Shown: in pieces, positions 516-56,264 of the stretch
How positions within the stretch are numbered: the first letter of the stretch is position 1
How the letters are laid out: each line of letters starts with the position of its first letter
Assembly: GCA_965223545.1 (NCBI GenBank)
Contig: OZ245006.1
Coordinates: 1,568,001 to 1,632,000, forward strand
Origin: Planctomycetota bacterium
GTDB taxonomy: Bacteria; Planctomycetota; UBA1135; UBA2386
Direction of reading: 5' to 3'
DNA length: 64,000 bases
Program-made: the position numbers and the translations under genes
Notes under the pieces: model-generated
What the model saw: the letters and a program-made list of their open reading frames with translations, nothing else
What the model was told of the DNA's origin: nothing
The model's database searches: none

Positions 516-1730
516 TCAGGACGACACCTGCCAGCTCAGACAGTTGCTGACCAACGTCCCGGTCCCACACAGACCGATCATCTGCGAGCCGAGGGGCGCG
601 CCGCAGAGCGAGGGGTTGGCGGGGATCCGCAACGACAGCGCCGCCACACCCGTGCAGCCCGTGCTGCCGACCGCCGGCACCGGACCGAACACGGTCGTCG
701 TCGGGCCCACCGGAGCGAGGATCGGGCCACAAAACGACGGCAACGACAGGCCTGGAGGAGTGCACGCCCCCGCGCCGAGCGCCAGGAACGCGACGGCGCC
801 GGCCGGAGCGTTCTCCAGCGTGACGCGAAACGACGCACTGCCGACTACGGGATCCCCGCGCAGTGCGTGCACCATCGCCGGACAGGACGTGCAAGCGCCC
901 GCGGTGCAGCTCGTGCCCACCGACGCCTCGGTCGGCGGCATCCAGCCGAGGCCGACCATCGGATCGTTCGACGCGCTGACGCAACACCGCGAGCCGGTGA
1001 ACGCGCAGCTGCCGCGGTCGAACCGCAACTGCACGATGATGCGCCCGGCGACGTAGAGCGTCTTTTGGCACGCATCGTAAGCCAAGCCGGTCAGCCCGGT
1101 CAGCGGGATCATCGCGCACCGATCCAAAGGGATCCGGCAGAACGGGTTGCACGGGTCCGACAGGGGCGCGGCAAACACGGTGCCGCCCGCGCCGGTCGGA
1201 TCCGCCGTGCAGTAGAACAGTGTCCCCGTGCTGTCATCGCAGGCCGCACCACTCAGCACCTCGCCAACCGGCGGCGTGATCGCACACCGCGACACGAACG
1301 ACAGTGCGCAGCCGCTGGTGCGGAAGATGAGGATGTTGTTGCTGGCGTCGGTGACGAACAGCTGTTGGGTCGCCGCGCTGTGGGCCAGTCCGGTCGCCGG
1401 ATTCGAAGCAGAGACGCGCGGAATCGGAGCGACGCTGCACACCTCCGCGCAACCGCCTCGCGGATCCACTCGCCCGATCACCAGCCCGTTGGTGATCCAC
1501 AGACCACGTGTCGTGGCGTCGTAGGCGGCACCGCCGTGCGACGGTGCCGTCGCCGCGGGAAAGCCGGCCAAGGCGCACGAAGTCTGGACGCATGCGCCGA
1601 CGTCGGTGTTCAGAATCGACGGGATCTGTTCGGTCAGCCCCAGCAGACGCCCGCCGGTCTGGGCCGGCAGCGCGGCGGCCAACAGGACAAGGACACCGAC
1701 GCTCCGTCGGCGACGCGGGGTAGTGAACAT
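516..1730 (-). CDS. Secreted Cys-rich beta-propeller-like protein with the shared C-terminal domain
   Basis: ATG at 1730 gives signal peptide MFTTPRRRRSVGVLVLLAAALPA|Q. Repeated G(A/L)A(Y/H/C)D-type blades. C-terminus GTSC..GDPVVG..IPANPSLCG..SQ..SNCL. Confidence 0.8.
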   Translation of the reverse strand: MFTTPRRRRSVGVLVLLAAALPAQTGGRLLGLTEQIPSILNTDVGACVQTSCALAGFPAATAPSHGGAAYDATTRGLWITNGLVIGRVDPRGGCAEVCSVAPIPRVSASNPATGLAHSAATQQLFVTDASNNILIFRTSGCALSFVSRCAITPPVGEVLSGAACDDSTGTLFYCTADPTGAGGTVFAAPLSDPCNPFCRIPLDRCAMIPLTGLTGLAYDACQKTLYVAGRIIVQLRFDRGSCAFTGSRCCVSASNDPMVGLGWMPPTEASVGTSCTAGACTSCPAMVHALRGDPVVGSASFRVTLENAPAGAVAFLALGAGACTPPGLSLPSFCGPILAPVGPTTTVFGPVPAVGSTGCTGVAALSLRIPANPSLCGAPLGSQMIGLCGTGTLVSNCLSWQVSS

Positions 1731-1815
1731 GGGCAAGCTCCGAGTGACGGGACTCCAGATCGTCACCGACTCTTGTCGGAGGCGCAACACCAGCCCAGCA
1801 CCGATCAATCTCGAA

Positions 1816-2223
1816 TCACAGTGCCCGCACCGCCGCGCGCACGCGCTCCGCCTCGACCCCCGCCGAGTCCAAGGCGCGCGCGCCCGTGCTGTCGGAAACC
1901 TGCAACAGACCGAGCAGCAGATGCTCCGTGCCGATATCCGAGTGCCCGAGCGCCGCGCACTCCGCCATCGCCGCCTCGAGCACGCGCTGGACACGCGCAC
2001 TGAACGGCAGCTGCCGTGCGCGACCCGCAGGCGATGTTTCGACAAGCCGCTCCACCGCCTGCTGCACGGAGGCCGGCTCCACGCCGCAAGCGCGCAGGAC
2101 GCGCCGCGCCGTACCGTCCTCGACCCGGCAAAGGCCGAGCAGCACGTGCTCGGTGCCGATGTACTCGTGGCCGAACTCTTCCGCCGCCGCGCGGGCGTGC
2201 CGCATGACGCGCTTGTCGGTCAC
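1816..2223 (-). CDS. Stand-alone Clp protease N-terminal (double Clp_N repeat) domain protein
   Basis: Two repeats: A..FGHEYIGTEHVLLGL and A..LGHSDIGTEHLLLGLL, joined by LPFSARVQRVLE. No AAA+ domain. GTG start overlaps the upstream stop (GTGA). Confidence 0.85.
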   Translation of the reverse strand: MTDKRVMRHARAAAEEFGHEYIGTEHVLLGLCRVEDGTARRVLRACGVEPASVQQAVERLVETSPAGRARQLPFSARVQRVLEAAMAECAALGHSDIGTEHLLLGLLQVSDSTGARALDSAGVEAERVRAAVRAL

Positions 2224-5114: not shown

Positions 5115-5130
5115 CGGGCACCAGGCTAGC

Positions 5131-5159
5131 GAGAAAATCGTGTCAGACTCCGTACTTCC
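5131..5159. repeat. REP-like imperfect palindrome, family A, copy 1
   Basis: GAGAAAATCGTGTCAGACTCCGTACTTCC; 25/29 identical to the reverse complement of 58556-58584. Intergenic. Confidence 0.7.
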
Positions 5160-5164
5160 GCGGG

Positions 5165-5188
5165 GAACGTCTTGGGTGGGACGGCGTA
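5165..5188 (+). promoter_or_regulatory. Putative ECF sigma promoter, GAAC-N16-CGTA
   Basis: GAAC at 5165-5168 and CGTA at 5185-5188, 12 nt before ATG 5201. The same motif precedes the paralog at 38299. Confidence 0.5.
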
Positions 5189-5200
5189 GGGCTCGGCGGC

Positions 5201-6301
5201 ATGGCTCTTTGTTCACCGTTGTCGTTCTGCACCGTTGCCGCCCTGGCGGTGTTCCCTGCTGCCTTGGCTGCCCAGGGGGCTGTCGTGGTGCCTTCGCTCT
5301 ACGCGGCCGTCGACGGTCGCGGCTTGAGCGACTACCCGTTCTCACGGGCCGACGCCCGCACGCAGCTCATCGTCGACAGTGCTTCGGTGGCGACGGCCGC
5401 GGGGGTCATCACGGCGATCGAGTTCCGCGCAAACAACGAGGGACAAAGCTCCCCCCTGCCCGCGACCACCGTGCACAACGTGACGGTGCGCCTGAGCCAG
5501 ACCGGAGTCACGCCGACCACCATGAGTGGGACGTTTGCCAACAACATCACGGCGTCGCCGTCGGTGGGGTTTCAGGGATCGGTGGCGCTGCCGGCCTACA
5601 CGTCGCGGCCAACGTCGGTCGCGCCGTGGTCGGTGCGGATCCCCCTGTCGACGCCGTTCGGGTTCACCACGGCGGCGGGCGACCTGTTGTTCGACATCAC
5701 CGTCGCCAACGCACCACCGTCCGGACCGCAGTACTGGCTCGACGCCGCCACCGCGGATGGCGCGATCACGCGCTTCGGCAACCAGGGGCCGAACCTCGCC
5801 CCCCTCGAGATCACGAGTGTTCCCGGAGGCCGGCTGTTTCCCGGCGGCACGATGTTCGTGATCTACGAGTCGTACGATGCCAGCGTCTTCCACGGAGTGC
5901 CGGTCGCCGGCGCGACCCTGTTCGCCCAGAGTCGGCTCGCGACACCCCTCGACCTGACCTCGGTCGGCGCACCCGGCAACTTCCTCCACTTGCTGCCGGT
6001 GGTGCAGGTGCCGTTCGCGACGCAGGCGATCGTGCCGCCGTGCGCGGCCTTCGAGGGATCCGTGGCCTTCAACGTGCCGAACAGCAGCGCCCTGGTCGGG
6101 GCGCGCTTGGCCGCGCAAGGTGCCGTCGCCGCGCCCTCGGCCAACCCGCTGGGGATCGTCGCGCTCGAGGGCTTCGAATTCACCTTCGCCGACGGCAAGC
6201 CGCACCCGGTGGCTCAGGTGCAGGCGCCGTCGAGCACCGCGACGTTCGGCGCCAAGCCGCTCGCGGCGCTGGTGCTGCGCCTGGTCGGCTCGTTCCAATA
6301 G
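5201..6301 (+). CDS. Secreted protein X1 of unknown function; paralog of 38299..39381
   Basis: Signal peptide ..VFPAALAA|Q. Shares YPF..R.Q..I.FRA.N, LSTPF, GDLLFDIT, PLDLT..G.P and terminal G(S/T)FQ with X2. Confidence 0.85.
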   Translation: MALCSPLSFCTVAALAVFPAALAAQGAVVVPSLYAAVDGRGLSDYPFSRADARTQLIVDSASVATAAGVITAIEFRANNEGQSSPLPATTVHNVTVRLSQTGVTPTTMSGTFANNITASPSVGFQGSVALPAYTSRPTSVAPWSVRIPLSTPFGFTTAAGDLLFDITVANAPPSGPQYWLDAATADGAITRFGNQGPNLAPLEITSVPGGRLFPGGTMFVIYESYDASVFHGVPVAGATLFAQSRLATPLDLTSVGAPGNFLHLLPVVQVPFATQAIVPPCAAFEGSVAFNVPNSSALVGARLAAQGAVAAPSANPLGIVALEGFEFTFADGKPHPVAQVQAPSSTATFGAKPLAALVLRLVGSFQ

Positions 6302-6485: not shown

Positions 6486-8981
6486 TCAGCGCGTCGCCAC
6501 CGCCGGAACGCCGGTCACGACGACGGGCGCCAGCCGCGTCAACTCGCCCGCGGCCAAGGCACGCGCCGCGCGGACCACCGGATCGCGACCCGGCACGTAG
6601 ATGGTCACGTCGTACTCCCCCGCCGGCAATCCGGCCGCGACATGCTCGGACCGCGAGTTTCGCCGCGCCCACACGTGATCGACCACCAGGTCCGGATGCG
6701 GAACCCATGCCTGCTTCGTCAACGACACGGCGACACCGGGAACCGGCCGGCCGGCCGGCCCCACGACCTCCACGCGCATCCCCGCCGTCGGCATGTCCTC
6801 GGCCCGCAGCGCGAGGCACCACTCCGCGGCGCGCGCGTGCACGGTCCAGGGTTTTCCAGCGGGGACATCGACAGCTGGCGGGAGCGCCACCATGTGGTGT
6901 GCGACGGCCGCCGTCGGGCCGAAGTCGAACCGACCCGCCGTATCCGTCGTCACTTGGCGCGGCCACGGCTCGCCACCGACTCCGGCCGGTCGCATCACCA
7001 ACCGCCAACTCGCCAAGCCCTCGCCATCGGGCCCCAAGAGTCGGCCGTGCAACCGAGCTCGCCCGTCGCCGAGCACGGGGTTCCAGGTCTGTGCCCCCCC
7101 GTTCTCCCATTCGAACAAGCGCCGCCGCACTCCGCCGACACCGCCGTCCACCCACACCGTGACCCGCGGCGAGGAAAACCCTGACAACCGGTAGCGACCC
7201 ATCGCGTCGGTGCGCACGCCGATCTCGGCGCGGTCGCGCTCCGGCTGCCACCAACCCACCCAAGCCCCGGCGAGCGGTCGACCCCGAGAGTCGGCGACCG
7301 TTCCCGCCAACACTCCTTCGACCAGGTCGAGGTCGAACGCGGTGTCCGCACCGGGGTCGACGTCGACGGCCACGGTGCGGCCGACCCGGCCCGGCGCCGA
7401 CACCGAAACCATCGTCCGGCCCGCGGGCACACCCGCGGCCTCGAACACACCACGCGCGTCGGTCCAAACCACCCGCGCCGGCCAGGCCGGCTGCCGCCGC
7501 CCCAGCGCGTCCGCCACCGGCGGCCGATAGCCGGCCCCGATCTCGATCCGCGCGCCCGCGATGCCGGCCCCGAGCCGATCGCGCACGCGTCCGCGCACGC
7601 TGCCGCCCGCCGCCGTCAACCGCAACACCACGTCGTGGTGTCGGCCGCCCAGACACACCACGCGGTGCACCCGCGCCGACGCGAGCGCCGCGTCGTACGC
7701 CTGCAGATAGCGCTCCCCACTGACGTGCTCCAAGCGAAACGCTCCGCGCGCATCGCTGACGGCCACCACCGTGCCCAGCCGCGCCGACGACGGCCGCGAC
7801 AACCAAACCGCGGCCCCGGGCACCGGCGCGCCTGCGCCGTCGACGACCGTACCGGCGATCGAATCACCGGCGGGAATGACCAGCTCGATCGACCCACCGG
7901 GGACGCGCGCCCGCACCAGGCCGCCACGCGCGGCCTCCAGTTCGAGCGCCCCGTCCGGCAGACCGTCCAGCGCGCATTCGCCGCGCGCATCGGTCGTCAA
8001 CCAGCGCGCGTGGAGGAACGGGTTGGCAACCGACTGCGGCCGGGCGTGCACCCGGCTCCCCGCGACGGGCCTGCCATCGGCGAAGCGCACCCGCAATCGA
8101 CCAGCGCCAGGCGACTTGTCTCTTGCCTCGACCAGGTGGCGCGCCGGATCGTCGGCGGCGCCTCGCTCGGGCGTGGCAGCGACGCGAGCCGTCTGCCGCG
8201 CGACTTCGAGCGCCGCGGGCACATCGGGCACCCGCGCCGCCGAGCGCCATTGCGCGCCGAGCATCGCGATCGCGACCACCGCGAGTACACCGGTAGCGAC
8301 CCGCAGGGCGACGCGACGCGACGCGGACGCGTCGACCGGCCGAACCACCTCCGCACGGACCGCGACCGCGTCGGCCGCGGGCGCGGGCGCGGGCGCGGCC
8401 CGCCCACGCTCCAGCAACACCAGCAGCACGACGCCGCGCCAGCCCGCTGGCAGCTGGCGGCGCAGCAGAGCAATGCCGCGCAGCAGCTGCGTGCGCACCG
8501 TCGCCGGCGGGCGCTCGAGCCGCTGCGCGATCTCCGCCGCAGACTCCCCGCGCAGCAAGCGCCGCTCGAGCACCGGGCGGTAGTGCGGCGGCAGCCGAGC
8601 GATCGCCGCAGCGAGGGTCGCCGGCAAATCCGCGAGGGCGGCTTCGAACGCGTCGCCCCGCGCTGGCAGCCCATCCAACGCTGCGCTCGACCGGGGCCGC
8701 CGGCGGGCCGCGCGGCCTCCGGAGCGCGCCTCGTTGCGCAGGATCGCCCGCAGCCACGGGCGCAGCGGGCGACCGGGCAGGTAGGCACGGGCGTGCCGCA
8801 TCGCCAACACGAACGTCTCCTGCACCAGATCGTCCGGCTCGACGCCGGCGGGCGCGAGCTGCAGGGCGAGCGCAGTGAGCTCGGGGCGCACGGCGCGGTA
8901 GATGGTGCTGAGCGAGTCGGGGCAGCCGGTCGCCCGAAACCGGGCGAAGAGCACTTCGAGAGAGTCACCACCGGCGGCCAT
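6486..8981 (-). CDS. ECF sigma-70 factor fused via a TM helix to several carboxypeptidase-regulatory-like (prealbumin/Cna-B-like) domains
   Basis: Sigma2: DDLVQETF, RPWLRAILRN. Sigma4: LPPHYR..AEIAQRLERPPATVRTQLLRG. TM: VATGVLAVVAIAMLG. Repeats G.VVD..G.PV.GA.V..TD..G.F. Start could be 8993. Confidence 0.9.
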   Translation of the reverse strand: MAAGGDSLEVLFARFRATGCPDSLSTIYRAVRPELTALALQLAPAGVEPDDLVQETFVLAMRHARAYLPGRPLRPWLRAILRNEARSGGRAARRRPRSSAALDGLPARGDAFEAALADLPATLAAAIARLPPHYRPVLERRLLRGESAAEIAQRLERPPATVRTQLLRGIALLRRQLPAGWRGVVLLVLLERGRAAPAPAPAADAVAVRAEVVRPVDASASRRVALRVATGVLAVVAIAMLGAQWRSAARVPDVPAALEVARQTARVAATPERGAADDPARHLVEARDKSPGAGRLRVRFADGRPVAGSRVHARPQSVANPFLHARWLTTDARGECALDGLPDGALELEAARGGLVRARVPGGSIELVIPAGDSIAGTVVDGAGAPVPGAAVWLSRPSSARLGTVVAVSDARGAFRLEHVSGERYLQAYDAALASARVHRVVCLGGRHHDVVLRLTAAGGSVRGRVRDRLGAGIAGARIEIGAGYRPPVADALGRRQPAWPARVVWTDARGVFEAAGVPAGRTMVSVSAPGRVGRTVAVDVDPGADTAFDLDLVEGVLAGTVADSRGRPLAGAWVGWWQPERDRAEIGVRTDAMGRYRLSGFSSPRVTVWVDGGVGGVRRRLFEWENGGAQTWNPVLGDGRARLHGRLLGPDGEGLASWRLVMRPAGVGGEPWPRQVTTDTAGRFDFGPTAAVAHHMVALPPAVDVPAGKPWTVHARAAEWCLALRAEDMPTAGMRVEVVGPAGRPVPGVAVSLTKQAWVPHPDLVVDHVWARRNSRSEHVAAGLPAGEYDVTIYVPGRDPVVRAARALAAGELTRLAPVVVTGVPAVATR

Positions 8982-9034
8982 CGCACCGACCATAGTCGGC
9001 GCGGAGCACGGGGGTACCGCCGACCGGCGGACAA

Positions 9035-10645
9035 TCATCTTCCAGTCGACAGACGCAACCCCGCGCTGTGCGCCAAGCCGCCGCTGGCACCGGCATCGAC
9101 GAAGAAGGCCTGGCCGAACAACACCGCGCAGCCGGTGGCCGGGGCGCGCACCGCGAGCCGGGTGCCGGCGGCCGGCACCATGAGCGGCACACTCCACGCC
9201 GGCTGCACCAATGCCGTGGCGCCCCCCGGCAGGGGCACGCTGGCGGCCGCCGTGCCGAGCACCAACGCCGCCGCGGCCGTCGCGGCCTGGCCACTGTCGA
9301 TCTCGAAGTGCGTCAGCGCCCCCCAGGCCGGATCGTCGGACATACCCAGCGTGGGCGTGCCGCCGCCCGCGTGCGCGGAACCGTAGTCACGAAAGCCCGC
9401 CCAGCACAGCGGTCCCGCGACCACGTAGGCGGCGTTCTCGCTCATCGCGCCGACGACGAAATCCAGCCCGCCGTCGCCGTCGAGATCGCCGATCAGATCC
9501 ACGTCCGCACCGAACGAGGCCCTGTTCTGCGTCGACGACACGGTCCACAGACGGCGGCCGTCGCGACCCGAGTACAGTCGCATCTGGCCGGCGTTGGTTG
9601 CACCAGCCGCAGAACGACGCGCGCCGACGAGCACATCGTCGAAGCCATCGCCGTTCACGTCGGGGATGATGCCGCGGCTGCTGAAGCCGACGCCTGGATC
9701 GGCGAACGTGTGCAGCGTCGCACCGGTGCGGCCGGAGAACACGCGCGCTCGGTCCTGGTCGCCTTCGCCGAGAAACAGATCGTCGGTGCCGTCGGCGTCG
9801 ACGTCACCACCGGACGCCAGGTTGTCGCCATCGAGCGGAAGCCCGAGGTCGACGTTGTCGATCTGCAGCCGGACCGCGGTCGTCGTGCCATCGAACCCGA
9901 TGACGTACAGCCGGCCCGCGGTCTGCAGTACACCCGTCCCGAGCCGCGCGGCGATCGCGAGCTCGTCGCGGCCATCGCCGTCGGTGTCGCGCACGAACGC
10001 GAGACCGCTGCCCCAAACCCCTTCCGCGGCGATCGGGTCGATCGTCGTCAGCGGCGCGAACCCGGGCCCCGAGAACACGTAGACCCGCCGCCGCACGCTG
10101 GCGGCAACGGCGACGTCATCGACGCCGTCGCCGTCGAAGTCGCCGCGCGTGGCGACGCTGTAGCCGAAGCGATCGAGCGTTGCTGCACCACTCAGGGTTT
10201 GCAGCGTCGCGCCCGTCGCGCCGGAGAACACGTGCACGAAACCGGGACCGCTGTTCCAGAACGGTGCGCTGGCGAACACCTCGTCCACCCCGTCACCATC
10301 CATGTCGGCGCCGCGCTCGAGCGCGAAGCCGAGGATGTGCGACTGCTGCTGGACGTTCGCGTTGCGACTCCACAGCTCGCTGCCATCGGCGCCCGAGCGC
10401 ATCGAGACGCGACCGATGTTCAGCTGGAAGAACGGCGCGCTGACGGCGAAGTCGACAACGCCATCGCCGTCGACGTCCCCCATCGCGCGCACTCGCCAAC
10501 CGAACAGCTCGGACGTGCCGGCCGGGGCGCTGCCGCGCACAATGGTGCGCGCGGCAGGCTCGAGCCACTGCGCAGCCTGCGAGGGTGAGGAAAGCCCCGC
10601 GAGAAGGGCAAAGGAGAACACGGAACAACGGGCGCTGTGCGGCAT
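9035..10645 (-). CDS. Secreted FG-GAP (integrin-alpha-like) propeller protein with the shared C-terminal domain
   Basis: Seven D(V/M/F/T/L)DGDG-type loops with FG..V and V.VFSG motifs. Signal peptide ..SQAA|Q. Ends FGQAFFVDAGASGGLAHSAGLRLSTGR. Confidence 0.9.
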   Translation of the reverse strand: MPHSARCSVFSFALLAGLSSPSQAAQWLEPAARTIVRGSAPAGTSELFGWRVRAMGDVDGDGVVDFAVSAPFFQLNIGRVSMRSGADGSELWSRNANVQQQSHILGFALERGADMDGDGVDEVFASAPFWNSGPGFVHVFSGATGATLQTLSGAATLDRFGYSVATRGDFDGDGVDDVAVAASVRRRVYVFSGPGFAPLTTIDPIAAEGVWGSGLAFVRDTDGDGRDELAIAARLGTGVLQTAGRLYVIGFDGTTTAVRLQIDNVDLGLPLDGDNLASGGDVDADGTDDLFLGEGDQDRARVFSGRTGATLHTFADPGVGFSSRGIIPDVNGDGFDDVLVGARRSAAGATNAGQMRLYSGRDGRRLWTVSSTQNRASFGADVDLIGDLDGDGGLDFVVGAMSENAAYVVAGPLCWAGFRDYGSAHAGGGTPTLGMSDDPAWGALTHFEIDSGQAATAAAALVLGTAAASVPLPGGATALVQPAWSVPLMVPAAGTRLAVRAPATGCAVLFGQAFFVDAGASGGLAHSAGLRLSTGR

Positions 10646-10745
10646 CGGCTCAATCGGTCGGTGGGGTTGCGGGGCGCGTTCGGACCTGCCAACGGGTAGA
10701 CCGCGCGCCTCGTCGCTGCTTCACCGAAACCGAGTGCCGCCGACT

Positions 10746-12098
10746 TCAGCGCACGTCGATCCGCACGCCGTTGGACAGCGAGAAGCCCAGCGTCGCGCTC
10801 GGATCGATCGCCGCCACCTGCGCGTACACCGAAGCGACTCCAACGCCTGCCGGCAATGGAAGCACGACGTGCGCCTGGCCGATCGGGTTGGCCTGGCCCG
10901 GCACGGTGACCGCGCGACTGGCATCGATCAGCAAACGGCAACCACCCGGCAGGGGAATGTCGGCCGCGCTCGGTGCCAAGGCGAAGACGACGGCACCGCC
11001 GCCCGGCCCTCCCGTGGTCAGCAGGCTGACCCGGTCGCCGCCGGTCGGCCGGCCGATCGCCATCGCGCGCGTCCCACAGCCGGTGCCGTATGGCTGCACG
11101 GCGGTGGGCTCGAGCAGCAGCGCGCGGTTGTCGGGGCCGATGCTGCCGTGCGCGGCGATGCGGCCGCGGTCATCGATGCCGGACACGGTCTCTACCTTTG
11201 CCAGCTGGGCGGGGTCGACCCAGTCGTCCAACCGCTGCAAGCCCAGCCCCGGCACCCAGACGTGCCCGATCCGATCGAAGCGGGGAGGGGAGACGCTGGT
11301 CCGCAGCCACTGCGTGCCGACAACCACGCCGAAGTCGTTGAGCCCACCGACCGTGCGCATCTGCACGGTCGCCGGGCGTGGCAGGACTTCCCATCCCAGC
11401 CCATCGGTGTAGCGCGCCAGCTCGAGGGCAGTGGTCACGCCGACCATCTGCCCGAGCTGGTTGATGCGCTCGGCGACGATCGGACCGAGCGGCAACAGTG
11501 GCTGACCCGGCGTGAGGCGATAGGGTGCGGCGTCCACGACCAGGCAGACCTGCCCGGCGTCATTGAGATCCAGCGCGCTGCTGCTGCCCGCCGAAGGGGC
11601 CAGCTCGATCCGCCCCGACGACGCCGTCCACGAGAACGCGCGCTGTGGCCCACCCATCGTCGTGAAGTTCCCCACGACGGTGCCGCCGGCGTTGATCGCC
11701 AACGCCGTGCTGAACGAGTCGCCCGGCTGCGACAGAGAAACCGCATTGCCCAGGGCATCCCACAACACCGCGATCGTCGGCGTCCCCGCGGTGAACCCAC
11801 GACAGTACCCGGCGGCGAGCCCGACATCGTTGACGTCCGCCGGGCTACCTTGCGAGTAGCCGCTGCAGATCTCCAGCGCGGCCATGCCCGTCGCCGCCGA
11901 CCAGACGAATGGATCCCACACTGCCGAGCCGCAGACGAACTCGCCGTTCGTGCTCATCGCGTCGGCCGTCACTCCGGCGAGCGCGGACTGTCCGGGCACC
12001 ACCCCGAGATCGACGACGCGGTACGGATACGCTTGCGCCGAAACGGTAAACGACGAGAGTAGAAGGCCGAGGGCAGCCATGGGTCGCTTGAGGATCAT
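10746..12098 (-). CDS. Secreted HAF-repeat-like protein with the shared C-terminal domain
   Basis: Signal peptide ..TVSA|Q, YRVVDLG. Repeats ALAINAGGTVVG..RAFSW, LNDAGQV, INQLGQMVG, LNDFGVVVG. Ends YAQVAAIDPSATLGFSLSNGVRIDVR. GGAG RBS upstream. Confidence 0.85.
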   Translation of the reverse strand: MILKRPMAALGLLLSSFTVSAQAYPYRVVDLGVVPGQSALAGVTADAMSTNGEFVCGSAVWDPFVWSAATGMAALEICSGYSQGSPADVNDVGLAAGYCRGFTAGTPTIAVLWDALGNAVSLSQPGDSFSTALAINAGGTVVGNFTTMGGPQRAFSWTASSGRIELAPSAGSSSALDLNDAGQVCLVVDAAPYRLTPGQPLLPLGPIVAERINQLGQMVGVTTALELARYTDGLGWEVLPRPATVQMRTVGGLNDFGVVVGTQWLRTSVSPPRFDRIGHVWVPGLGLQRLDDWVDPAQLAKVETVSGIDDRGRIAAHGSIGPDNRALLLEPTAVQPYGTGCGTRAMAIGRPTGGDRVSLLTTGGPGGGAVVFALAPSAADIPLPGGCRLLIDASRAVTVPGQANPIGQAHVVLPLPAGVGVASVYAQVAAIDPSATLGFSLSNGVRIDVR

Positions 12099-12206
12099 CG
12101 TGTTCTCCGCCGGCCGGTAGACCGGCGATCGCCTTCTGTTGCAGGCAATTCGACGCATCGCGAGGAATTCGCAAGCCCCCCCGGACGCCCCCCAAGTCTC
12201 CCGCCG

Positions 12207-38298: not shown

Positions 38299-39381
38299 AT
38301 GCGACCACCCCTCTGTTTCGCCATCACTGCCCTGCTCGCCGCCACAGCCAACGCCCAGGGTGTCTTCATCCCGCCGATCGCCAATACCACGGAGGGCAAC
38401 GACATCTCGTCGTACCCATTCGGCTTCACCCAGTTCCGCTCCCAGCTGCTGCTCGACCAGAGCATGGTCGCGCCGAACTCGGCAGTGATCACCGCGATCG
38501 CGTTCCGCGCCGACAACGACAACTCCTCGGCGAAGCCAGCGGTGACGGTGCAGAACGTGACCATCGACATGAGCCACAGCACGGTGGCGACCGGCGCGAT
38601 GTCGACCACCTACGCGTTGAACGTCACCGGCACTCCAATGACGGTGTTCACCGGCTCGGTCAGCATGCCGGCCTACACGCCCAGTGAGCTCGGCGTCGCG
38701 CCGTGGTTCACGATCAACCTGGACACGCCGTTCGCGTACAATGCGGCGAACGGCAACTTGTTGATCGACATCACCGCGATCGACGTCAACGGCTCCCAGC
38801 GCACGAACTACTCGCTCGACACGTTCTTGCCGGGCGGCAACGTGCGCTCCTTCGGCAACTCCGGCGTGCCGTCGGGCGGTGGCCTTCCCGAACGCATCAC
38901 CGTGTCCTCGAGCAGCGGTGCGAACGGACGCTTTTCCGGTCTGTCGCCGGGCGGCTCGGTCGACGCAGCCGCGGGCGGCTTCTTCGCCGCGGCACCGAAT
39001 GGCTTCTTCATGATCGGCACCGAGCTGATGCCGCCGCTCGACCTGACCGCGCTGGGCATGCCAACGAGCACCGCGTACGTGAACCCGGTGTTCTTCGACG
39101 TGATCTTCCCGTCCGGTCCGCTGCAGCGATGGTTGGCGACGTACCCGCTGCCCAACTCGCCCAACATCGTGGGCGGCCGCATCTTCAGCCAATCGCTGGT
39201 GCAGGACGCGGGCTACCCCGCCGGCTACTACGCAACCACCGCCCAGCAGGTGACGATCGGCGTGGCCACCGTGCAGAGCAACCAGCTCCGCGGCCAGGAT
39301 CCGGCCGCCGCCACCGGCTTCTTGGACAAGACCACCGTCGGCGGCGGCCCCGCCATGCAGTTGAGCGGAACCTTCCAGTAG
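38299..39381 (+). CDS. Secreted protein X2 of unknown function; paralog of 5201..6301
   Basis: Signal peptide ..ATANA|Q. SYPF, VITAIAFRADN, LDTPFAY..GNLLIDIT, PLDLTALGMP, terminal GTFQ. Confidence 0.88.
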   Translation: MRPPLCFAITALLAATANAQGVFIPPIANTTEGNDISSYPFGFTQFRSQLLLDQSMVAPNSAVITAIAFRADNDNSSAKPAVTVQNVTIDMSHSTVATGAMSTTYALNVTGTPMTVFTGSVSMPAYTPSELGVAPWFTINLDTPFAYNAANGNLLIDITAIDVNGSQRTNYSLDTFLPGGNVRSFGNSGVPSGGGLPERITVSSSSGANGRFSGLSPGGSVDAAAGGFFAAAPNGFFMIGTELMPPLDLTALGMPTSTAYVNPVFFDVIFPSGPLQRWLATYPLPNSPNIVGGRIFSQSLVQDAGYPAGYYATTAQQVTIGVATVQSNQLRGQDPAAATGFLDKTTVGGGPAMQLSGTFQ

Positions 39382-39435: not shown

Positions 39436-39489
39436 TGGCGCCTGGCCCCCTTGCCGGACCGGGCGTTTCGGTGCGAAATACACTGTTCC

Positions 39490-42399
39490 ATGCGCTCGCC
39501 CCCCTCCGCTGCCCTGCTCTTCCCGGTCTTGGCCACGGTCCTGGCCGGCGTCGCGCCGGCTCAGCTGACGGTGAGCCAGTTCTCTGGAGTCAACCCCGGT
39601 GACGAGTACGGGCGCGCGGTCGCCGTAATCGGCGACGTCGACGGCGACCTGGTGCCGGACGTCGCAATGGGGATTCCGGGGGACGACACCGGGGGCAACG
39701 ACGCGGGCGCGGTGGAAATCCACTCCGGCGCCGACGGCACGATCATCACTCGCTTGTTCGGAAGCCGGGCAGGCGAGCGGTTCGGCGCGGCTCTGGCCAG
39801 CGCGGGCGACTTCGACGGCGACGGGCGCGCCGACCTGATCGCAGGCGCCCCCACCGCGGCTGGTCTGGTGCGCGTGGTTTCCGGCGCCGACGGCAGCGAT
39901 CTGCTGTTGGTCACCGGCGGAGCTGGCGACCAGCTCGGCACCGCTGTGGCCGGCGACGCCGACTTCGACAACGACGGGTTCTCCGACGTCGCGATGGGTG
40001 CGCCGGGCGCCGGCGGCAGGGGTCAGGTGCGGCTCTACTCGGGCCGCAACGGCCGGTTGCTGCAGACCCTCTCGGGCAACTTCCCGGGCGACCGTTTCGG
40101 CGCCGCGCTCGCGACCTTGCCCGACATCGACGGCGACGGCAACGACGAAGTGCTGGTCGGCATTCCCGGTTTGGACGCCGGCGGCGTCGACGCCGGTGGC
40201 GCGCGGATCTATTCGCCGAACGGGCGGCCGCTGCGCGAGTGGACCGGCGACGCCGCGGGCGACGGCTTCGGCAGCGCGGTGGCCCGGGGCGGTGACATCG
40301 ACGGCGATGGGGTTTCTGAAGCGCTCGTCGGCGCGCCCTTCAACGACGCGGCGGCGCCCGACGGAGGCCAGGTCTCCGCGCTGAGCGGGGCGGACGGGAC
40401 CCGGATCTCGGTGTGGTTCGGCCGGCGGGACAACGACAACTTCGGGACCGCGGTCAGCGGCGGCCAAGACCTGGACGGCGACAACTCGCCGGACGTCATG
40501 GTCGGCGTCCCCGGACGCGACACCGCGGGGCTGGACGCCGGCGCAGTCGAAGTCTTCGCCGGCTTCGACGCACGGCCGCTCTACGAGATCCACGGCACCG
40601 CTGCGGGCGACGGCTTGGGCACGGCGGTGGACCTCGGTGACGACACGAACAGCGACGGCTACGCCGACATGGTCGCCGGCATGCCCGGCAACGACACCGG
40701 CGGCGCGGATGCGGGCGCGGCCTGGCTGCGGAGCCAGAATCCCTACGATGGGGTCGCCGCGCTGCTCAGCCGCGCCGACGCCGGCACCGACGGCAAGCTG
40801 GGAGGCACCCTCGCGATCACCGGCGACGTCAATGGCGATGGCACCGCCGATTACGTTTCAGGCGCCCGCCACGACAACGGTCAGCTCGGCAGCCTGTGGG
40901 TGTACTCGGGCCTCGACCAGAGCGTGCTGCACACGTTCTGGGGCGATGCTCCCGGGGACTCGCTCGGCACCGCTGTCGCCAGCGCGGGGGACGTCGACGG
41001 CGACGGGCTCGACGACATCATCGCCGGCGCCTGGCACGAACAGTCATTCACCTTCGCCAACGGCATGGCCCGGGTGTACTCGGGCGCGACCGGCGCCGTG
41101 CTGCACACCTTCTACGGAACCAGCTATCGCGACCACATGGGTACCGCCGTCGGCGGCATCGGCGACGTCGACGGCGATGGTGTCCCCGACCTGGCGGTCG
41201 GTCTCGGCATCCGTTTCCGCAACACGGAGGAGGGCTCGGTCTGGGTCTACTCGGGCGCGACCGGCAACAAGCTGTACGAGGTCGATGGCAAGTTCAACTT
41301 CGAGTGGTTCGGCTGGAAGCTCGCCGCGCTGCACGGTGATCTCAATGGCGACGGCGTGCCCGACTTCATCGCCGCGGGGCCGCAGTATCTGCCGCAGGTC
41401 ACGGGCCCCGGGCTGGTGCGCGCCATCTCGGGCGTCGACGGCGCCGTGCTCTACTCGGTGGCCGGCATCGCGCTGGGCGACCGCTTCGGCAACAGCTTGC
41501 ACGGCCTCGGCGATATCGATGACGACGGCGCCCCCGACTTCGTCGTCGGTGCCACCGAGGACGACGTCGGCGCTCCGGACGCCGGCGCGGCGCGGGTGTA
41601 CTCCGGTGCCACCGGCGCGCTGCTCGCCCAATGGGTGGGTGAGAACGCCGGCGACAGGTTCGGCGCAGTGGGTAGCGGCGGCGACGCCGACGGTGACGGC
41701 CTGGACGACATCGCCGTCGGCGCAACCGGCTACGACGGACCGGCGGGCGCGGACGCGGGCCGGATCTACATCTATTCGTCGCGCACCTTCGCGCTGCTGG
41801 TGACGATCGAAGGCACCCAGTCGTCGATCGATTTCGGCGTGACCACCAACATCCTCCCGGACACGGACGGCGACGGTTACGGCGAAGTCGTGGCCGGGGC
41901 ACAGCTCGCCGACGACAACGGTATGGACAGCGGTCGCATCGAGGTCTTCACCTCGTTGGCGGCCAGTCAGCCCGGAAGCGCGCGCACGTTTGGCATCGGC
42001 TGCGCAACGGCCGACGGCAAGCTGATGCGCCTCGCCGTCGAAGCGCGCCCTCAACTGGGTCGCCGCGCCGACGTGTCGGTACGGGCCGGCCCGGCGTCCA
42101 GTGTCGGCCTGATCGCGATCGGAGACAGCGCCACTCAATGGAGCGGAGTGCCCCTCCCGCTGGCCCTCGGTCCCGCCGCTCCGGCATGTTCGTTGACCAC
42201 CAACATGCGTCTGACGATTCCGGTCGGCTTCGACGCGCTTGGTCAGGCGCGCGTACCACTGGGGGTTCCCGCCAACGCCGGCCTCCTCGGCGCGGTGCTC
42301 TACATGCAGTTCGCCGCGGTCTCGCCGGGCGCCAATCCACTCGGCGTAGCGCTGAGCGATACCGCCGAGATCCGCATCGGCGAGCTCCACAGCCTCTGA
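39490..42399 (+). CDS. Secreted FG-GAP repeat protein (about 14 repeats, probably two propellers) with the shared C-terminal domain
   Basis: Repeated FG.A(V/L)...GD.DGDG..D..VGAP..G.V..YSG. Signal peptide ..VAPA|Q. Ends LYMQFAAVSPGANPLGVALSDTAEIRIGELHSL. Confidence 0.92.
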   Translation: MRSPPSAALLFPVLATVLAGVAPAQLTVSQFSGVNPGDEYGRAVAVIGDVDGDLVPDVAMGIPGDDTGGNDAGAVEIHSGADGTIITRLFGSRAGERFGAALASAGDFDGDGRADLIAGAPTAAGLVRVVSGADGSDLLLVTGGAGDQLGTAVAGDADFDNDGFSDVAMGAPGAGGRGQVRLYSGRNGRLLQTLSGNFPGDRFGAALATLPDIDGDGNDEVLVGIPGLDAGGVDAGGARIYSPNGRPLREWTGDAAGDGFGSAVARGGDIDGDGVSEALVGAPFNDAAAPDGGQVSALSGADGTRISVWFGRRDNDNFGTAVSGGQDLDGDNSPDVMVGVPGRDTAGLDAGAVEVFAGFDARPLYEIHGTAAGDGLGTAVDLGDDTNSDGYADMVAGMPGNDTGGADAGAAWLRSQNPYDGVAALLSRADAGTDGKLGGTLAITGDVNGDGTADYVSGARHDNGQLGSLWVYSGLDQSVLHTFWGDAPGDSLGTAVASAGDVDGDGLDDIIAGAWHEQSFTFANGMARVYSGATGAVLHTFYGTSYRDHMGTAVGGIGDVDGDGVPDLAVGLGIRFRNTEEGSVWVYSGATGNKLYEVDGKFNFEWFGWKLAALHGDLNGDGVPDFIAAGPQYLPQVTGPGLVRAISGVDGAVLYSVAGIALGDRFGNSLHGLGDIDDDGAPDFVVGATEDDVGAPDAGAARVYSGATGALLAQWVGENAGDRFGAVGSGGDADGDGLDDIAVGATGYDGPAGADAGRIYIYSSRTFALLVTIEGTQSSIDFGVTTNILPDTDGDGYGEVVAGAQLADDNGMDSGRIEVFTSLAASQPGSARTFGIGCATADGKLMRLAVEARPQLGRRADVSVRAGPASSVGLIAIGDSATQWSGVPLPLALGPAAPACSLTTNMRLTIPVGFDALGQARVPLGVPANAGLLGAVLYMQFAAVSPGANPLGVALSDTAEIRIGELHSL

Positions 42400-43444: not shown

Positions 43445-43472
43445 CGCGGCGACGGCGGCGGCATCGCCTCGC

Positions 43473-43514
43473 AAAGGTTGTCGAAGCTCGACGATTCGAG
43501 GCGCCGGACGCTCA
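43473..43514. repeat. Intergenic repeat family B, copy 1
   Basis: 36/42 identical, ungapped, to 56403-56444. Both copies include and follow the stop codon of a - strand gene. Confidence 0.75.
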
Positions 43515-45200
43515 TGGAGTGATCACCGTCGCGGTGGGATTGGTGACGAACGCGGGCGTCCCGCTCGGGTCCGCGCCAAGCACCGCCCAGGTCAGGGCCC
43601 GGGGCACCAACGGTGCCAACACGCCCGCCGGGACCGAGAACACCGCTGAGCCGCGGCCGTTCGCATCCAGCGTGGCGAAGCCGTTGACCAGCACCGGGGT
43701 GTTCACCGAAGCCAGCAGGGCGGCAGTGACCGAGTCGTAGTTGATGGGCAGCACGAGCCCGCCGATCGGAGTGCCTGGGCTGCTGCCGGACAAGCTCCCC
43801 GTCACCAAATACGAATGGCCCGCGCCACCGGGGCCGACGTCGAAGGTGATCGACACCGGTCCGCCCGCCGCCGCCGACACCAACACCGGGGCACCGAGCA
43901 CCGGCCCCGCGACCGCCGACCGCGCCGTCGCACCAACGTGACCCTGCGCGTCGCGCACCTGAACACCGATGCGCAGACTGCCGGGCCCGCGGGCGAGGAC
44001 GTTGCGAGGACCGCTACTGCCCCAGGGGGTCTCGAACACTCCATCGTTGTCGAGGTCGTAACGCACCGTGAGACTGGCAGCGGTCTGCTTGGCACTCCGA
44101 CTGCCGCTGGCATCGCACACCGCGGTCAAGCCATCGATCCCCACTGCAACACCCGGCACGGGCAGATCGGGTCCCGGGGCTGCGTACTGCGCGAGCACCG
44201 GCCACCAGGCCGCCTGCATCGTGCCATAGCGGAACGCGTTGTAGCCGCTCGCACCGCCGCCCATGGCGCCGGTGATCGAGGCGGCGATCGTCTGCGGCGT
44301 CGCAGTCTCGTTCGCGTCGGTCCAGCAGCGGATCGCCGGCACGACGCGGCGCGGACCGGTTCCGGCGCGCTGCACCGCTTGTTGGCAATAGAGCGCGGTC
44401 TGCCGCACGTAGGCCTGATGCAGCGTGTACGTCGAGTAGATCGAACCATCCGCGGTGTAGGCCATCGGCATCAGCACGTCGACCCACCGCGAGAGCTCTT
44501 CCCAGTCCTGGCCGTAGCACGACCGCAGCGTGGAGCGAACCTGCGCGTACGAGTTGAAGACGCCGTTGTAGGTCGGTCCGTCGAAGGTGAACCGGTTGGC
44601 GATCAGGTAGGCGTGCAGCGACCGCCCTCCGAGTCGCTGCTTGACGTCGCGGACGAAGTCGGTGACGACCTGCGGATCGTTGGTGCAGCTCGTGCCCACG
44701 AAACGGACGTAGTCCAGCGATAGGCCATCGAGGTCGTAGTGGGGCGCTCCCGTCGGGTCGAAGCTGTTCACCAGGTAGTCACAGATCGACAGCAAGTACG
44801 CGCGGTGTGCGGCATCCGTCGGCTGCACGCCGGCATCGAAGCACTTGACGACACCGACGACCTGCAGGTTTTGCGCGTGGGCCTGTGCGATCAGCGCGCG
44901 CAAATCGATGCCCACCCGGTTCGGGCGCACGGGTCCCCAGGCCGGGTTCCAGGTGCCGGCAGCGTCGTCGATCCACAACGTGCCGGCCCGCGGACCGGTG
45001 GTGCGAAACACGTTGACGTAGATGGTGTCGAGGTTGCGCCCGCGGGTCTGCGTCACCAGCGCACCGATCTGCGGATCCATGTTGCCGACCAGGAAGGGCC
45101 AGGTGCCGATCGAAGCGTCGGTGGAGAGCTGGGCGGGCGCGAGACCGGTTGCCGCGAGCAGGGCGGCGCACGAGCGCCAGGCACGGAAGAGCATCGCCAT
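43512..45200 (-). CDS. Secreted GHL10-like TIM-barrel glycoside hydrolase with a PKD-like domain and a variant of the shared C-terminal domain
   Basis: Signal peptide ..GLAPA|Q. DTIYVNV, LIAQAH...LQV, DGLSLDYVRF, GQDW, VDVLMPMAY; PKD-like DASGS..YDLDNDG..VRD..G; LDANGRGSA.F.VP..TNP. Confidence 0.75.
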   Translation of the reverse strand: MAMLFRAWRSCAALLAATGLAPAQLSTDASIGTWPFLVGNMDPQIGALVTQTRGRNLDTIYVNVFRTTGPRAGTLWIDDAAGTWNPAWGPVRPNRVGIDLRALIAQAHAQNLQVVGVVKCFDAGVQPTDAAHRAYLLSICDYLVNSFDPTGAPHYDLDGLSLDYVRFVGTSCTNDPQVVTDFVRDVKQRLGGRSLHAYLIANRFTFDGPTYNGVFNSYAQVRSTLRSCYGQDWEELSRWVDVLMPMAYTADGSIYSTYTLHQAYVRQTALYCQQAVQRAGTGPRRVVPAIRCWTDANETATPQTIAASITGAMGGGASGYNAFRYGTMQAAWWPVLAQYAAPGPDLPVPGVAVGIDGLTAVCDASGSRSAKQTAASLTVRYDLDNDGVFETPWGSSGPRNVLARGPGSLRIGVQVRDAQGHVGATARSAVAGPVLGAPVLVSAAAGGPVSITFDVGPGGAGHSYLVTGSLSGSSPGTPIGGLVLPINYDSVTAALLASVNTPVLVNGFATLDANGRGSAVFSVPAGVLAPLVPRALTWAVLGADPSGTPAFVTNPTATVITP

Positions 45201-45319
45201 GGACAACGGACCTCGGTAAAGACCTCGGTTTGCGGAGGAGAGGGTAGCGTACCGCGGCGCCGGCGAGGGCAAAGGGGGTCGAAGCGGGAAGATGGAGCGG
45301 GACTCCGTACAGTCCGTGC

Positions 45320-45697: not shown

Positions 45698-45713
45698 CCA
45701 CGCCGGAGACGCA

Positions 45714-54103: not shown

Positions 54104-55716
54104 CAGCATGCCGTGTCTCATCACTCGCCATCCTCGCGATCCTCTTTGTCTACATGTGGTCGGCGGCCCCGGGCCTCAACTGGGGCGATGGCGCAAGGCT
54201 GCAGCTAGAGGCGATCGGCGGCGGCGCAACATACCACTTTATAGATTCAGTAGAAGGACTGCGCGGCTCGTCCGTGATCGGCCGACTCGGCTGCACGCCT
54301 TGGGACCACCCGCCGTACCTACTGCTCACGCACTTCCTGGCTGAGCTTTCCACGAATCCACTACGCGACCTCAACCTGCTGTCCTCGGCTTGTGCCGCCC
54401 TCGCTCTATCGCTCTTGCTTCGCGCGATGCGCGGCCTCGCCCCCAGCCTTGGTGCACTGGGCGCCGTTGTGATGCTGGCGGGGTCACATACGTTCTGGTT
54501 CCACGCGGCCACGACGGAGGTGTACGCCCTGCACGTAGCATTCATGGCATGGTTGATCGGCAGAATTTTACGCGGTGGTCCAACTGGAGCGCCCCAAACC
54601 TTCACGTACGGTCTAACGTGCGGCTTGGCGGTCGCCAACCACGTCATGATGGCGCTGACGATCCTGCCCTCGCTGTTGTTCGTCCGGTGGCGGGCCATGC
54701 GACGGCGGGACGTCATACTTGGCACCGCGGGATTCGTGTGCGGCTTGACTCCGTGGCTCGTGGCATTTGCGGGCGTGACAAGAACCCATGGTGCCGAAAT
54801 AGCACTACGCTCGGCGTCCTGGTTCGGCGGCCTTCTCGGGTTGTGGAGCAACCAGTCCGTCGCGGATTGGCTGTGGAACCCAATCGAGTACGCGCTGCTG
54901 CTGACCTACCAGTTCACGCCAATCGGCGTCTTGCTCGCGTACTCGGGCGTCAAGAGGTTGCGAAACCAGAACGAAACCGCGGCGCGCTACCTGATGTTGC
55001 TGTTTGTGGCGCACGCGCTGTTCTCGACGAACTTTCCCGTGGCCGACCGGTTCGCATTCCACCTGCCTTCGTACTGCGTGTTTTCGATCTGGATTGCCGT
55101 GGGGTTGGACGGAGGAGTGTCCTCATTGCATCGTTCGCGGCCAATCGTTGTGGCGCTTTTGATCGTCGGTCTGCAGATTTCGGTGTACGCGGCCGCTCCG
55201 ACTCTTGCTCGCGCCGCAGGACTAGACGAGCAGCAGTTGGGGATCTCGGTCGTCGGCTCAAAGCAGCGCGACGGGATGCGCTACTACCTCACTCCATGGA
55301 AGCGAGGCGACGACTCGGCCGAACGCTTCGGCGCCCACTCTTTGTCGGCCCTAGAGCGAGATGCGCTGGTCGTCGCACCGCACCCGGATGTCGAGGCGTT
55401 CCTGGTGCTACGTTGCCTCCAGCTCCTTCGCGATGTCCGCACCGACGTCGTCGTCGACCCGGTCGCCTTCGGTCGGCCGGAGGACTCGGGAGCGCTGGTG
55501 ACGGCCGCAATTGAACGGGCGCGAGCGCGCAGGCCCATCTATCTCGCCAGCGAAGCGGTCGTCCAGCTGGCGCCATGGGTTCGTGAAGCGTTCCACACGA
55601 TCCCAGAGGCCGGCATGCTCCGCCTGGTACGGCGACCTGGCCGCGACTCCCCGGAACGCAGCGTCGATCCTCCCACCTCCAGCCTCCGCTCGACGCTGCT
55701 TCGCGCCGTGCGATAG
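54100..55716 (+). CDS. DUF2723 / TMEM260-like GT-C membrane glycosyltransferase
   Basis: APGLNWGD, DHPPY, NLLSS, SHTFWFHA.TTEVYAL, GL...NH; multiple TM helices. GTGA overlap with the upstream stop. Confidence 0.8.
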   Translation: MTACRVSSLAILAILFVYMWSAAPGLNWGDGARLQLEAIGGGATYHFIDSVEGLRGSSVIGRLGCTPWDHPPYLLLTHFLAELSTNPLRDLNLLSSACAALALSLLLRAMRGLAPSLGALGAVVMLAGSHTFWFHAATTEVYALHVAFMAWLIGRILRGGPTGAPQTFTYGLTCGLAVANHVMMALTILPSLLFVRWRAMRRRDVILGTAGFVCGLTPWLVAFAGVTRTHGAEIALRSASWFGGLLGLWSNQSVADWLWNPIEYALLLTYQFTPIGVLLAYSGVKRLRNQNETAARYLMLLFVAHALFSTNFPVADRFAFHLPSYCVFSIWIAVGLDGGVSSLHRSRPIVVALLIVGLQISVYAAAPTLARAAGLDEQQLGISVVGSKQRDGMRYYLTPWKRGDDSAERFGAHSLSALERDALVVAPHPDVEAFLVLRCLQLLRDVRTDVVVDPVAFGRPEDSGALVTAAIERARARRPIYLASEAVVQLAPWVREAFHTIPEAGMLRLVRRPGRDSPERSVDPPTSSLRSTLLRAVR

Positions 55717-55754
55717 ACACACCGCGACGCATCGTCACTGCCCGTAGTCGCCCG

Positions 55755-56264
55755 CTACTGCACGAACACGCACACCGCCGACGAGAACGTCCACCCCGTC
55801 CCCGGCTGCGCCGGCGTGCCGACCGCGGCCGCGGCCTGAAAGCCGACTTGCGCGTTGACGGGCAACCCCCGCGGCACGGGGATCGCGCGCGTCTCGAGGC
55901 CGTCGTAGCAGAAGCGCGTGCCGTTCGGCGTCGATACCGCACCCCCCATCAGTCCGATCAGCGGTGGCGCCAACACCAAGTTGTTCCAGATCCCCTGCAC
56001 CGGCAGACACAGGATCGCCATCGGCGCCATGACCACGACGTACGGAGCACCGAGCGGCGCGCGCACGGTGAACGTCAGCTGGTCCGGACTCCGGGTGTTG
56101 ATGGCGTAGGGGTTGCAGGAGAACCCCCAGCAGGAGTCACCGCCGGAGCCGATGCTGCTCTGCACCGTGAACCCCATGTCGCCGAACACGATCTGCGCCG
56201 AAGCACGGGGGCTGGACAGCGCCGCGATAGCGGCCACAGCGATGATCCAAGAACGCACGCGCAT
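55755..56264 (-). CDS. Small secreted protein consisting almost entirely of the shared C-terminal-type domain
   Basis: Signal peptide ..PRASA|Q; G..C..LTFTVRAP.GAP..V..LPVQG..L.L..G...IPVP...VGFQA..FSSAVCVFVQ. Confidence 0.75.
   Translation of the reverse strand: MRVRSWIIAVAAIAALSSPRASAQIVFGDMGFTVQSSIGSGGDSCWGFSCNPYAINTRSPDQLTFTVRAPLGAPYVVVMAPMAILCLPVQGIWNNLVLAPPLIGLMGGAVSTPNGTRFCYDGLETRAIPVPRGLPVNAQVGFQAAAAVGTPAQPGTGWTFSSAVCVFVQ

Follow-up and report, generated by a model that had tools for sequence, protein, structure and literature searches.

Do exported proteins with unrelated bodies, encoded within one stretch of a planctomycete genome, end in one common domain, and what is that domain for? 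This question is raised by a stretch of 64,000 nucleotides (hereafter the window) at positions 1,568,001 to 1,632,000 of contig OZ245006.1, from a Planctomycetota genome of 8.1 Mb in two contigs (assembly GCA_965223545.1, here G000). The G+C content of the window is ~71%, and the genome also encodes the planctomycete PSCyt/PSD1 families. A preliminary description of the window had listed nine genes sharing a C-terminal domain (CTD) and had considered it a lineage-specific candidate for sorting or surface anchoring. The common domain is real, far beyond chance, in seven of the nine genes named. What stood of that description is a real, unnamed, C-terminal domain on unrelated exported bodies, and what did not stand is the number of genes. 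We give an even chance to the reading of this domain as a cargo tag, that is, a folded C-terminal module for export or surface attachment.

The membership of each gene was judged by leave-out profiles, a profile of the seven segments being circular for its own seeds. The main profile consisted of 305 copies from the same genome and no window sequences, the second one of 20 non-window copies, and a further leave-out profile was run at E≤1000. E-values of the window proteins are scaled to 60,586 six-frame open reading frames (ORFs), and genes are named below by their first coordinate (Table 1). Five canonical and two divergent copies (in proteins X1 and X2) were recovered in the window by the window-free profiles. 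In detail, the respective E-values with the 305-copy and the 20-copy profile were 9.6e-20 and 1.8e-16 for the HAF protein 10746, 3.6e-12 and 9.1e-11 for the FG-GAP protein 9035, 2.8e-4 and 4.6e-11 for the ELWxxDGT protein 32276, 2.7e-9 and 1.1e-6 for X1, and 3.5e-7 and 4.8e-5 for X2. The FG-GAP protein 39490 reached 1.2e-22 with the 305-copy profile. The Cys-rich protein 516, which has no Pfam or NCBIfam family, reached 1.8e-11 with the same profile and was missed by the 20-copy one. The segments therefore form a significant mutual profile, as had been assumed, all seven proteins being recovered without window seeds.

The remaining two genes are of a different standing. Protein 43512 is no demonstrable member of the domain family, with no match at E≤100 (305-copy profile) or E≤1000 (leave-out profile) and an hhalign probability of 0.1. 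Protein 55755 is marginal. It matched the whole length of the 305-copy profile at E 0.012, had no match at E≤1000 with another leave-out profile, and showed an hhalign probability of 0.1, scores by which it may be, at best, a very distant relative.

In X1 and X2 the domain had been taken as internal. It is not placed mid-protein, as nothing but a tail of 34-39 residues comes after it. This tail ends in G(S/T)FQ and lacks a hydrophobic helix. The two proteins are members of a subfamily of small exported proteins with a common N-terminal region of ~200 residues without Pfam match, a cysteine-free CTD and the extra tail.

Sequence features and fold of the domain

The domain comprises ~125-135 residues. 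The alignment of the C-terminal 150 residues shows the motif (Y/F)GxGC, PxxG, LPxGC with the second Cys, P, LxG, Q, DP and (S/T)N. This C-terminal motif, proposed from the window, is upheld across the 312 copies of the genome: Q is present in 297 of them, a P in 280, and three positions hold G in 267-278. Both cysteines occur in 184 copies, only one of them in 8 and neither in 120, a covariation that would be expected of a disulfide pair.

The AlphaFold2 prediction, based on an alignment of 25 copies and made for the CTD of protein 39490, is a confident all-beta sandwich of seven main strands (mean pLDDT 93.9, pTM 0.83). The C-terminus is the last strand of this globular domain, so that the reported lack of a transmembrane helix with a basic tail is confirmed. 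The homodimer prediction of the domain scored 0.01 against a mark of 0.42, which says nothing either way on the idea of a lattice.

The fold is of a broad class. Foldseek against PDB returned weak immunoglobulin (Ig)-like matches only, the best with TMq 0.52, whereas galactose oxidase gave TMq 0.31-0.34. Exhaustive alignment against 48,161 chains pointed to macroglobulin-type and Ig-like domains (VIA Z 8.0-8.8, root-mean-square deviation 3.1-4.1 over 108-115 residues), though structural-alignment Z-scores of 7-8 are, according to the tool itself, typical of unrelated best matches. Generic Ig-like, macroglobulin and E-set domains, for instance the MG type of alpha-2-macroglobulin or the third domain of galactose oxidase, which follows a Kelch propeller, appear to belong to the same broad fold class, but the structural match is at a level common for unrelated folds and there is no Pfam Ig or E-set match. 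Pre-peptidase C-terminal (PPC) domains are C-terminal beta-sandwiches of secreted proteases, thought to aid secretion. Compared with this general description, the planctomycete domain is likewise a C-terminal beta-sandwich on secreted enzymes, and no Pfam family, PPC presumably among those covered, matched the 25 domain sequences beyond single chance matches (E>0.03).

No existing family covers the domain. Nothing in Pfam or NCBIfam covers the last ~130 residues of the seven window members, and 25 domain sequences gave only single chance matches in the two libraries (E>0.02; Pfam E>0.03). Similarly, in 82 full-length matches from a global protein set the best stretch of any Pfam family was never located on the CTD. 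The PDB sequences yielded one chance match (E 0.048), and the nearest clusters in the ESM Atlas are "hypothetical protein", mostly of Planctomycetota and without a common Pfam family. In the accessible parts of the literature on C-terminal sorting and secretion in Planctomycetota and on C-terminal domains of Kelch and FG-GAP proteins, a description of the domain was not found. Such a domain is also not described in the accessible part of the literature on one planctomycete clade, whose identity with the clade of the window is not established. The domain is a genuine, unnamed beta-sandwich family, probably Ig-like, and its characterization as undescribed held through Pfam, NCBIfam, the PDB sequences and the ESM Atlas.

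Position, cargo and distribution

The genome contains 312 six-frame ORFs with the domain (i-E≤1e-4, one iteration round), with one domain in each. This set is considered stable because a further round gives 311. All copies are located on the chromosome, where 81 neighboring pairs within 5 kb are found versus ~55 expected. The third-position G+C of 74 of the 312 ORFs is below 0.80 and goes down to 0.59, the range of the clear window genes being 0.85-0.92.

The domain is strongly enriched at the C-terminus, as had been proposed. No more than 3 residues separate it from the stop codon in 234/312 copies, and no more than 10 in 256/312. Longer tails measure 11-30 residues in 24 copies, 31-47 in 22 and more than 47 in 10. 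The tails of 31-47 residues often end in G(S/T)FQ or in a short hydrophobic strand. A profile search of a global set of 1.84 billion representative proteins found 28,939 clusters at E≤1e-3, of which 11,014 remain at E≤1e-10. In 144 of the best 150 of the 28,939 matches, at most 3 residues follow the domain, and it is single in all 150. The best match from each of 20 genomes of other families of the phylum, picked by score and not by position, has 0-5 residues after the domain in all 20 cases.

The bodies carrying the domain are largely unrelated. The 292 domain-free bodies of at least 60 residues fell into 98 BLAST clusters, of which 67 are singletons and the largest have 49, 29, 22, 21, 17 and 16 members. 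Pfam assigned a family to 17 of 38 cluster representatives and none to the other 21. The cargo families include Kelch, FG-GAP, DUF7948, sulfatase, beta-lactamase fold, glucose/sorbosone dehydrogenase (GSDH), peptidases M43 and M14, CotH with LTD, BNR, di-haem cytochrome c peroxidase (CCP_MauG), Laminin_G_3, a Rax2-type propeller, beta-helix and lactonase. The claim of unrelated bodies stands with these 98 clusters, but with a strong bias toward beta-propellers, and the top global cargo is less varied: the bodies of the 82 full-length top global matches are Kelch in 58, FG-GAP in 6, fn3 in 1, weak other matches in 2 and no family in 15.

One sulfatase cargo illustrates how the domain is combined with a body. 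Orthologues bearing the domain have 570-600 residues, whereas domain-free homologues have 414-472, are 48-58% identical and cover only 67-76% of the query. This shows that in this sulfatase cargo the domain behaves as an add-on.

Each of the seven window members has a Sec-type signal peptide at its N-terminus, i.e., a basic and a hydrophobic stretch followed by an Ala-rich cleavage region often ending in A-Q, and the same applies to most of the full-length global matches. In the genome, a signal-peptide heuristic, which looks near the start inferred from the rise in third-position G+C, was passed by 173/301 members and 210/800 control ORFs (odds ratio 3.8, Fisher p 1.6e-21). The assumption of a Sec signal on diverse cargo is borne out by both results. 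A looser heuristic allowing all internal start codons was discarded, being passed by 360/600 controls as compared with 260/301 members.

The distribution of the domain was followed in an order sample of 21 genomes and a phylum sample of 201 genomes; the class, as sampled, comprises this one order only. In the order, 20/21 genomes carry the domain, the number of matches per genome ranging from 14 to at least 150. The sole exception among the 20 relatives of the source genome is G015 (2.9 Mb, 91% complete), with no domain copy and 0/25 candidates matched. This genome has no sulfatase candidate for the sulfatase-cargo query either and is hence uninformative on that point. In the phylum sample the domain occurs in 41/201 genomes and is all-or-none by family (5/5, 4/4 and 5/5 vs 0/9, 0/10 and 0/7). 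It was not found in any of ten named mainstream control genomes, taken from matches to the DAHP synthase of the window (Gemmata, Fimbriiglobus, Zavarzinella, Limnoglobus, Frigoriglobus, Gemmatales, Singulisphaera, Planctomycetaceae, and the metagenome-assembled genomes (MAGs) of a Planctomycetales and a Phycisphaerales member). A single match was found in 1/18 genomes of other phyla, and 1-3 copies in 5/121 genomes of Acidobacteriota. Of three acidobacterial proteins checked, one has a canonical and terminal domain and two have cysteine-free, non-terminal ones. The proteins of the relatives come from "Planctomycetota bacterium" MAGs and are labelled "hypothetical" or after the body. The domain is lineage-specific in the sense originally meant, confined to and greatly expanded in a part of one phylum and rare in Acidobacteriota.

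A possible sorting role and its rivals

We infer a possible sorting, anchoring or lattice role from the overall pattern. The cargo-tag reading is favored because the domain is found in a single copy, at the extreme terminus, on hundreds of unrelated Sec-exported cargo proteins and with conserved polar positions, and also because its all-or-none distribution with massive expansion is accompanied by tag-free homologues elsewhere. In such a mechanism, Sec would carry the cargo through the inner membrane. Folding would take place in the periplasm, with a disulfide between the two covarying cysteines, and the polar positions that are conserved (Q, D-P, S/T-N) would serve as a recognition surface. 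A component of the envelope would recognize the domain and mediate either transport across the outer membrane or retention on it. A dedicated receptor, translocon or attachment step would exist.

Known systems offer partial parallels. PEP-CTERM/exosortase and LPXTG/sortase also use a C-terminal mark common to many exported proteins of one lineage, but that mark is a short motif with a transmembrane helix and a basic tail, in contrast to a globular domain of 130 residues without hydrophobic helix. The PEP_CTERM model (TIGR02595) has no match in G000. The CTD of the type IX secretion system (T9SS) of Bacteroidota and their relatives (type A, TIGR04183 Por_Secre_tail) shares more features: it too is a folded beta-sandwich that closes the C-terminus of Sec-exported proteins with unrelated bodies, single in each protein and in numbers above 100 per genome. 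On account of these same features, the working mode is probably similar.

The likeness could even mean that the planctomycete domain is a divergent T9SS CTD using a cryptic T9SS, given the same logic of an Ig-like sandwich on unrelated cargo in such numbers, a relation we regard as highly improbable. Por_Secre_tail has no matches in the domain-rich genomes G000, G011 and G009, though the two controls, a Bacteroidetes MAG and an Ignavibacteriae MAG, gave 148 and at least 150. The SprA/Sov translocon (TIGR04189) scored above the cut-off in both controls and was not found in the three domain-rich genomes. The hhalign comparison of 25 domain copies with 20 T9SS CTDs from the control genomes returned a probability of 0.05. 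The planctomycete domain is also longer (~130 residues vs ~72-80, with 72 profile positions in Por_Secre_tail), has a conserved cysteine pair in most copies and belongs to a different phylum. GldM/PorM (TIGR03517) had zero matches, yet also zero in both T9SS-positive controls. The type B T9SS CTD (TIGR04131), presumably part of the NCBIfam library, did not appear in the library scans of the seven window proteins and the 25 domain sequences, and no search was aimed at that model. The missing resemblance, first judged by eye, is therefore corroborated; on profile evidence, membership in the T9SS CTD family appears contradicted and the domain is to be read as not homologous to it.

A further-reaching proposal is that a branch of Planctomycetota runs a CTD-directed sorting unrelated to T9SS, which would serve about one gene in 20 (312) by machinery of no described family. 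We put it forward tentatively, as something rather less than an even prospect.

Several observations weigh against a dedicated tag. The signal-peptide heuristic is crude, as 26% of the controls pass. Several cargo enzymes are typically periplasmic (cytochrome c peroxidase, GSDH, beta-lactamase fold), and because of them the destination need not be the cell surface. More than 47 residues follow the domain in the 10/312 copies mentioned above, some of which precede a hydrolase domain; near the N-terminus, after the signal peptide, it is found in 3/150 of the best global matches; and two of the three acidobacterial proteins carry 100 and 282 residues beyond it. In nine ORFs of the genome with an internal or N-terminal domain, a PETase-like hydrolase lies downstream in two, and no recognizable secretion or peptidase module was found in any. 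As shown by these rare copies, the fold can therefore also serve as an ordinary module.

In the main rival to the cargo tag, the domain would be a plain module for binding or adhesion outside the cytoplasm, of Ig-like or carbohydrate-binding type, with a common ligand such as a glycan of the cell wall, the capsule or the surface of prey, and with no role in transport. We hold this to be possible but unlikely. The generic Ig-like/macroglobulin-like fold (best TMq 0.52; VIA Z 8.8) is consistent with it, as are the minority of internal or N-terminal copies, the low-copy versions in a few Acidobacteriota and the fact that the search for machinery, given below, found no partner. Such modules, however, usually vary in position and are often in tandem, whereas here the domain is single in 312/312 ORFs, adjoins the stop in three quarters of them and is terminal in the best match of each of the 20 other genomes. 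A distribution that is all-or-none, with copies in the dozens to hundreds where the domain is present, is also more system-like.

The periplasmic cargo bears on another reading, in which the domain would retain, scaffold or stabilize proteins in the enlarged planctomycete periplasm or protect their C-terminus. CCP_MauG, GSDH, the beta-lactamase fold and peptidase M14 are among the cargo that agree with it, and the cysteine pair fits folding in the periplasm. A surface tag would give the same pattern equally, and the largest cargo clusters consist of bodies of the Kelch, FG-GAP and ELWxxDGT types, as a rule found on the surface or outside the cell. This reading seems improbable to us.

The search for machinery adds to the points that speak against the cargo tag. 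As already stated for the window, no cognate machinery is visible in it. In the genome, neither the neighborhoods of the domain genes nor the outer-membrane candidates yielded a receptor, translocon, peptidase or attachment enzyme. Next to the 312 genes lie members of large paralogous families only (kinases, sulfatases, transposases, ECF-sigma fusions), with nothing translocon- or sortase-like. The outer-membrane candidates were 59 ORFs with a C-terminal beta-signal, of which 20 were scanned with Pfam. The FadL-like L217 and the TraF_2-like L220 were rejected, as they were not found in G011, G017, G030, G015 and G021 and are unconserved within the family.

The 20 scanned ORFs also included L206, a strongly conserved protein of ~1,150 residues with glycine-rich stretches, whose relatives are 47-65% identical over 93-96% of the length. 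It is a predicted lipoprotein, judging from the alignment consensus, in which a nearly invariant Cys comes right behind the hydrophobic stretch at the N-terminus. Big_5 is matched in relatives but not in its own Pfam scan. In the phylum sample it matched 23/41 CTD-positive and 0/160 CTD-negative genomes. Its profile, however, is found in the CTD-negative sister G015 (E 1.4e-60), with weak partial matches in two other negatives. Because of this presence in G015, the association is most likely due to shared descent, L206 was rejected as dedicated machinery, and the profiling proposed for co-occurring outer-membrane families did not deliver a partner. The family is seen only in part of the phylum and is often multicopy, with apparently four copies in tandem in G041. 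In the L206 model (pLDDT 80), Ig-like and beta-rich domains are strung together rather than forming a large barrel; Foldseek matched Ig-like parts only (TMq ≤0.09).

Neighboring genes and meaning for the lineage

The largest family among the neighbors of the domain genes is that of Ser/Thr kinases with long TPR arrays (43 members). The neighbors also include 12 IS110-type transposase ORFs of an identical length of 461 residues. In two long proteins of the window, ECF sigma regions 2 and 4 are joined to CarboxypepD_reg repeats. Of the ECF-sigma/CarboxypepD_reg paralogues in the genome, 11/35 have a CTD gene no more than 100 bp away, in comparison with 96/862 for the control genes (binomial p 0.001). 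They are recurrent neighbors of CTD genes, themselves outside the domain family, and the arrangement may be a pairing of regulator and cargo.

Positions 42401-49539 of the window hold a cluster resembling cell-wall sugar recycling. Aromatic amino-acid genes occupy 18758-26634(-), namely DAHP synthase, a PALP enzyme (likely TrpB-type), anthranilate phosphoribosyltransferase and anthranilate synthase component I. For the DAHP synthase, the nearest relatives with a name are MAGs of Acidobacteriota with 64-71% identity, and Planctomycetota reach only 51-57%, identities that hint at gene transfer or a deep lineage.

Table 1. Features of the window and two further loci of the genome (L206 and its paralogue); limits of the CTD are approximate
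Feature	Coordinates	ORF	Strand	CTD	Remarks
Cys-rich exported protein	516..1730	516-2219	-	~522-1016	Signal peptide from Met at 1730
X1, small exported protein	5201..6301	4742-6301	+	~5741-6211	Divergent, cysteine-free CTD; tail ends GSFQ
FG-GAP exported protein	9035..10645	9035-10720	-	~9038-9454	Pfam FG-GAP 8.2e-32
HAF-repeat exported protein	10746..12101	10746-13091	-	~10752-11156	NCBIfam HAF_rpt
ELWxxDGT-repeat exported protein	32276..35326	32219-35326	+	~34886-35323	NCBIfam ELWxxDGT_rpt 2.3e-280
X2, paralogue of X1	38299..39381	38086-39381	+	~38782-39276	Divergent, cysteine-free CTD; tail ends GTFQ
FG-GAP exported protein	39490..42399	39394-42399	+	~41905-42390	Pfam FG-GAP 1.7e-59
Exported protein, weak DUF4015 glycoside-hydrolase-like match	43512..45200	43512-45335	-		No demonstrable member of the domain family; in cell-wall sugar cluster
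Small exported protein, 169 residues	55755..56264		-		Membership marginal
ECF sigma regions 2 and 4 + CarboxypepD_reg repeats, long protein	6486..9386		-		Pfam; adjoins FG-GAP cargo gene
Second ECF-sigma/CarboxypepD_reg long protein	35292..38135		-		Pfam; between ELWxxDGT cargo gene and X2
SIS-domain protein	42404-43522				Cell-wall sugar cluster
Sodium:solute symporter	45459-47150				Cell-wall sugar cluster, with DUF4015-like protein
Exo-beta-N-acetylmuramidase NamZ	47749-49536				Cell-wall sugar cluster
SIS/GKRP-like gene	4221-5366				Further SIS gene, outside the cluster
L206	C1:381918-385490		-		Predicted lipoprotein
L206 paralogue	C1:508680-512549		+

A curated profile of the domain would allow the annotation of at least 28,939 protein clusters, at present "hypothetical" or named after their N-terminal part. 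The genome of G015, negative for the domain within a domain-rich order and still carrying the L206 family, is a natural experiment for the machinery. Should the domain serve as a tag for sorting or anchoring, it would mark out the exported and surface proteome of a branch of Planctomycetota that is little studied and for the most part uncultured. It would then account for roughly 5-6% of the genes of the genome (312 ORFs vs a crude count of 5,050) and would point to an undescribed route to or across the outer membrane.

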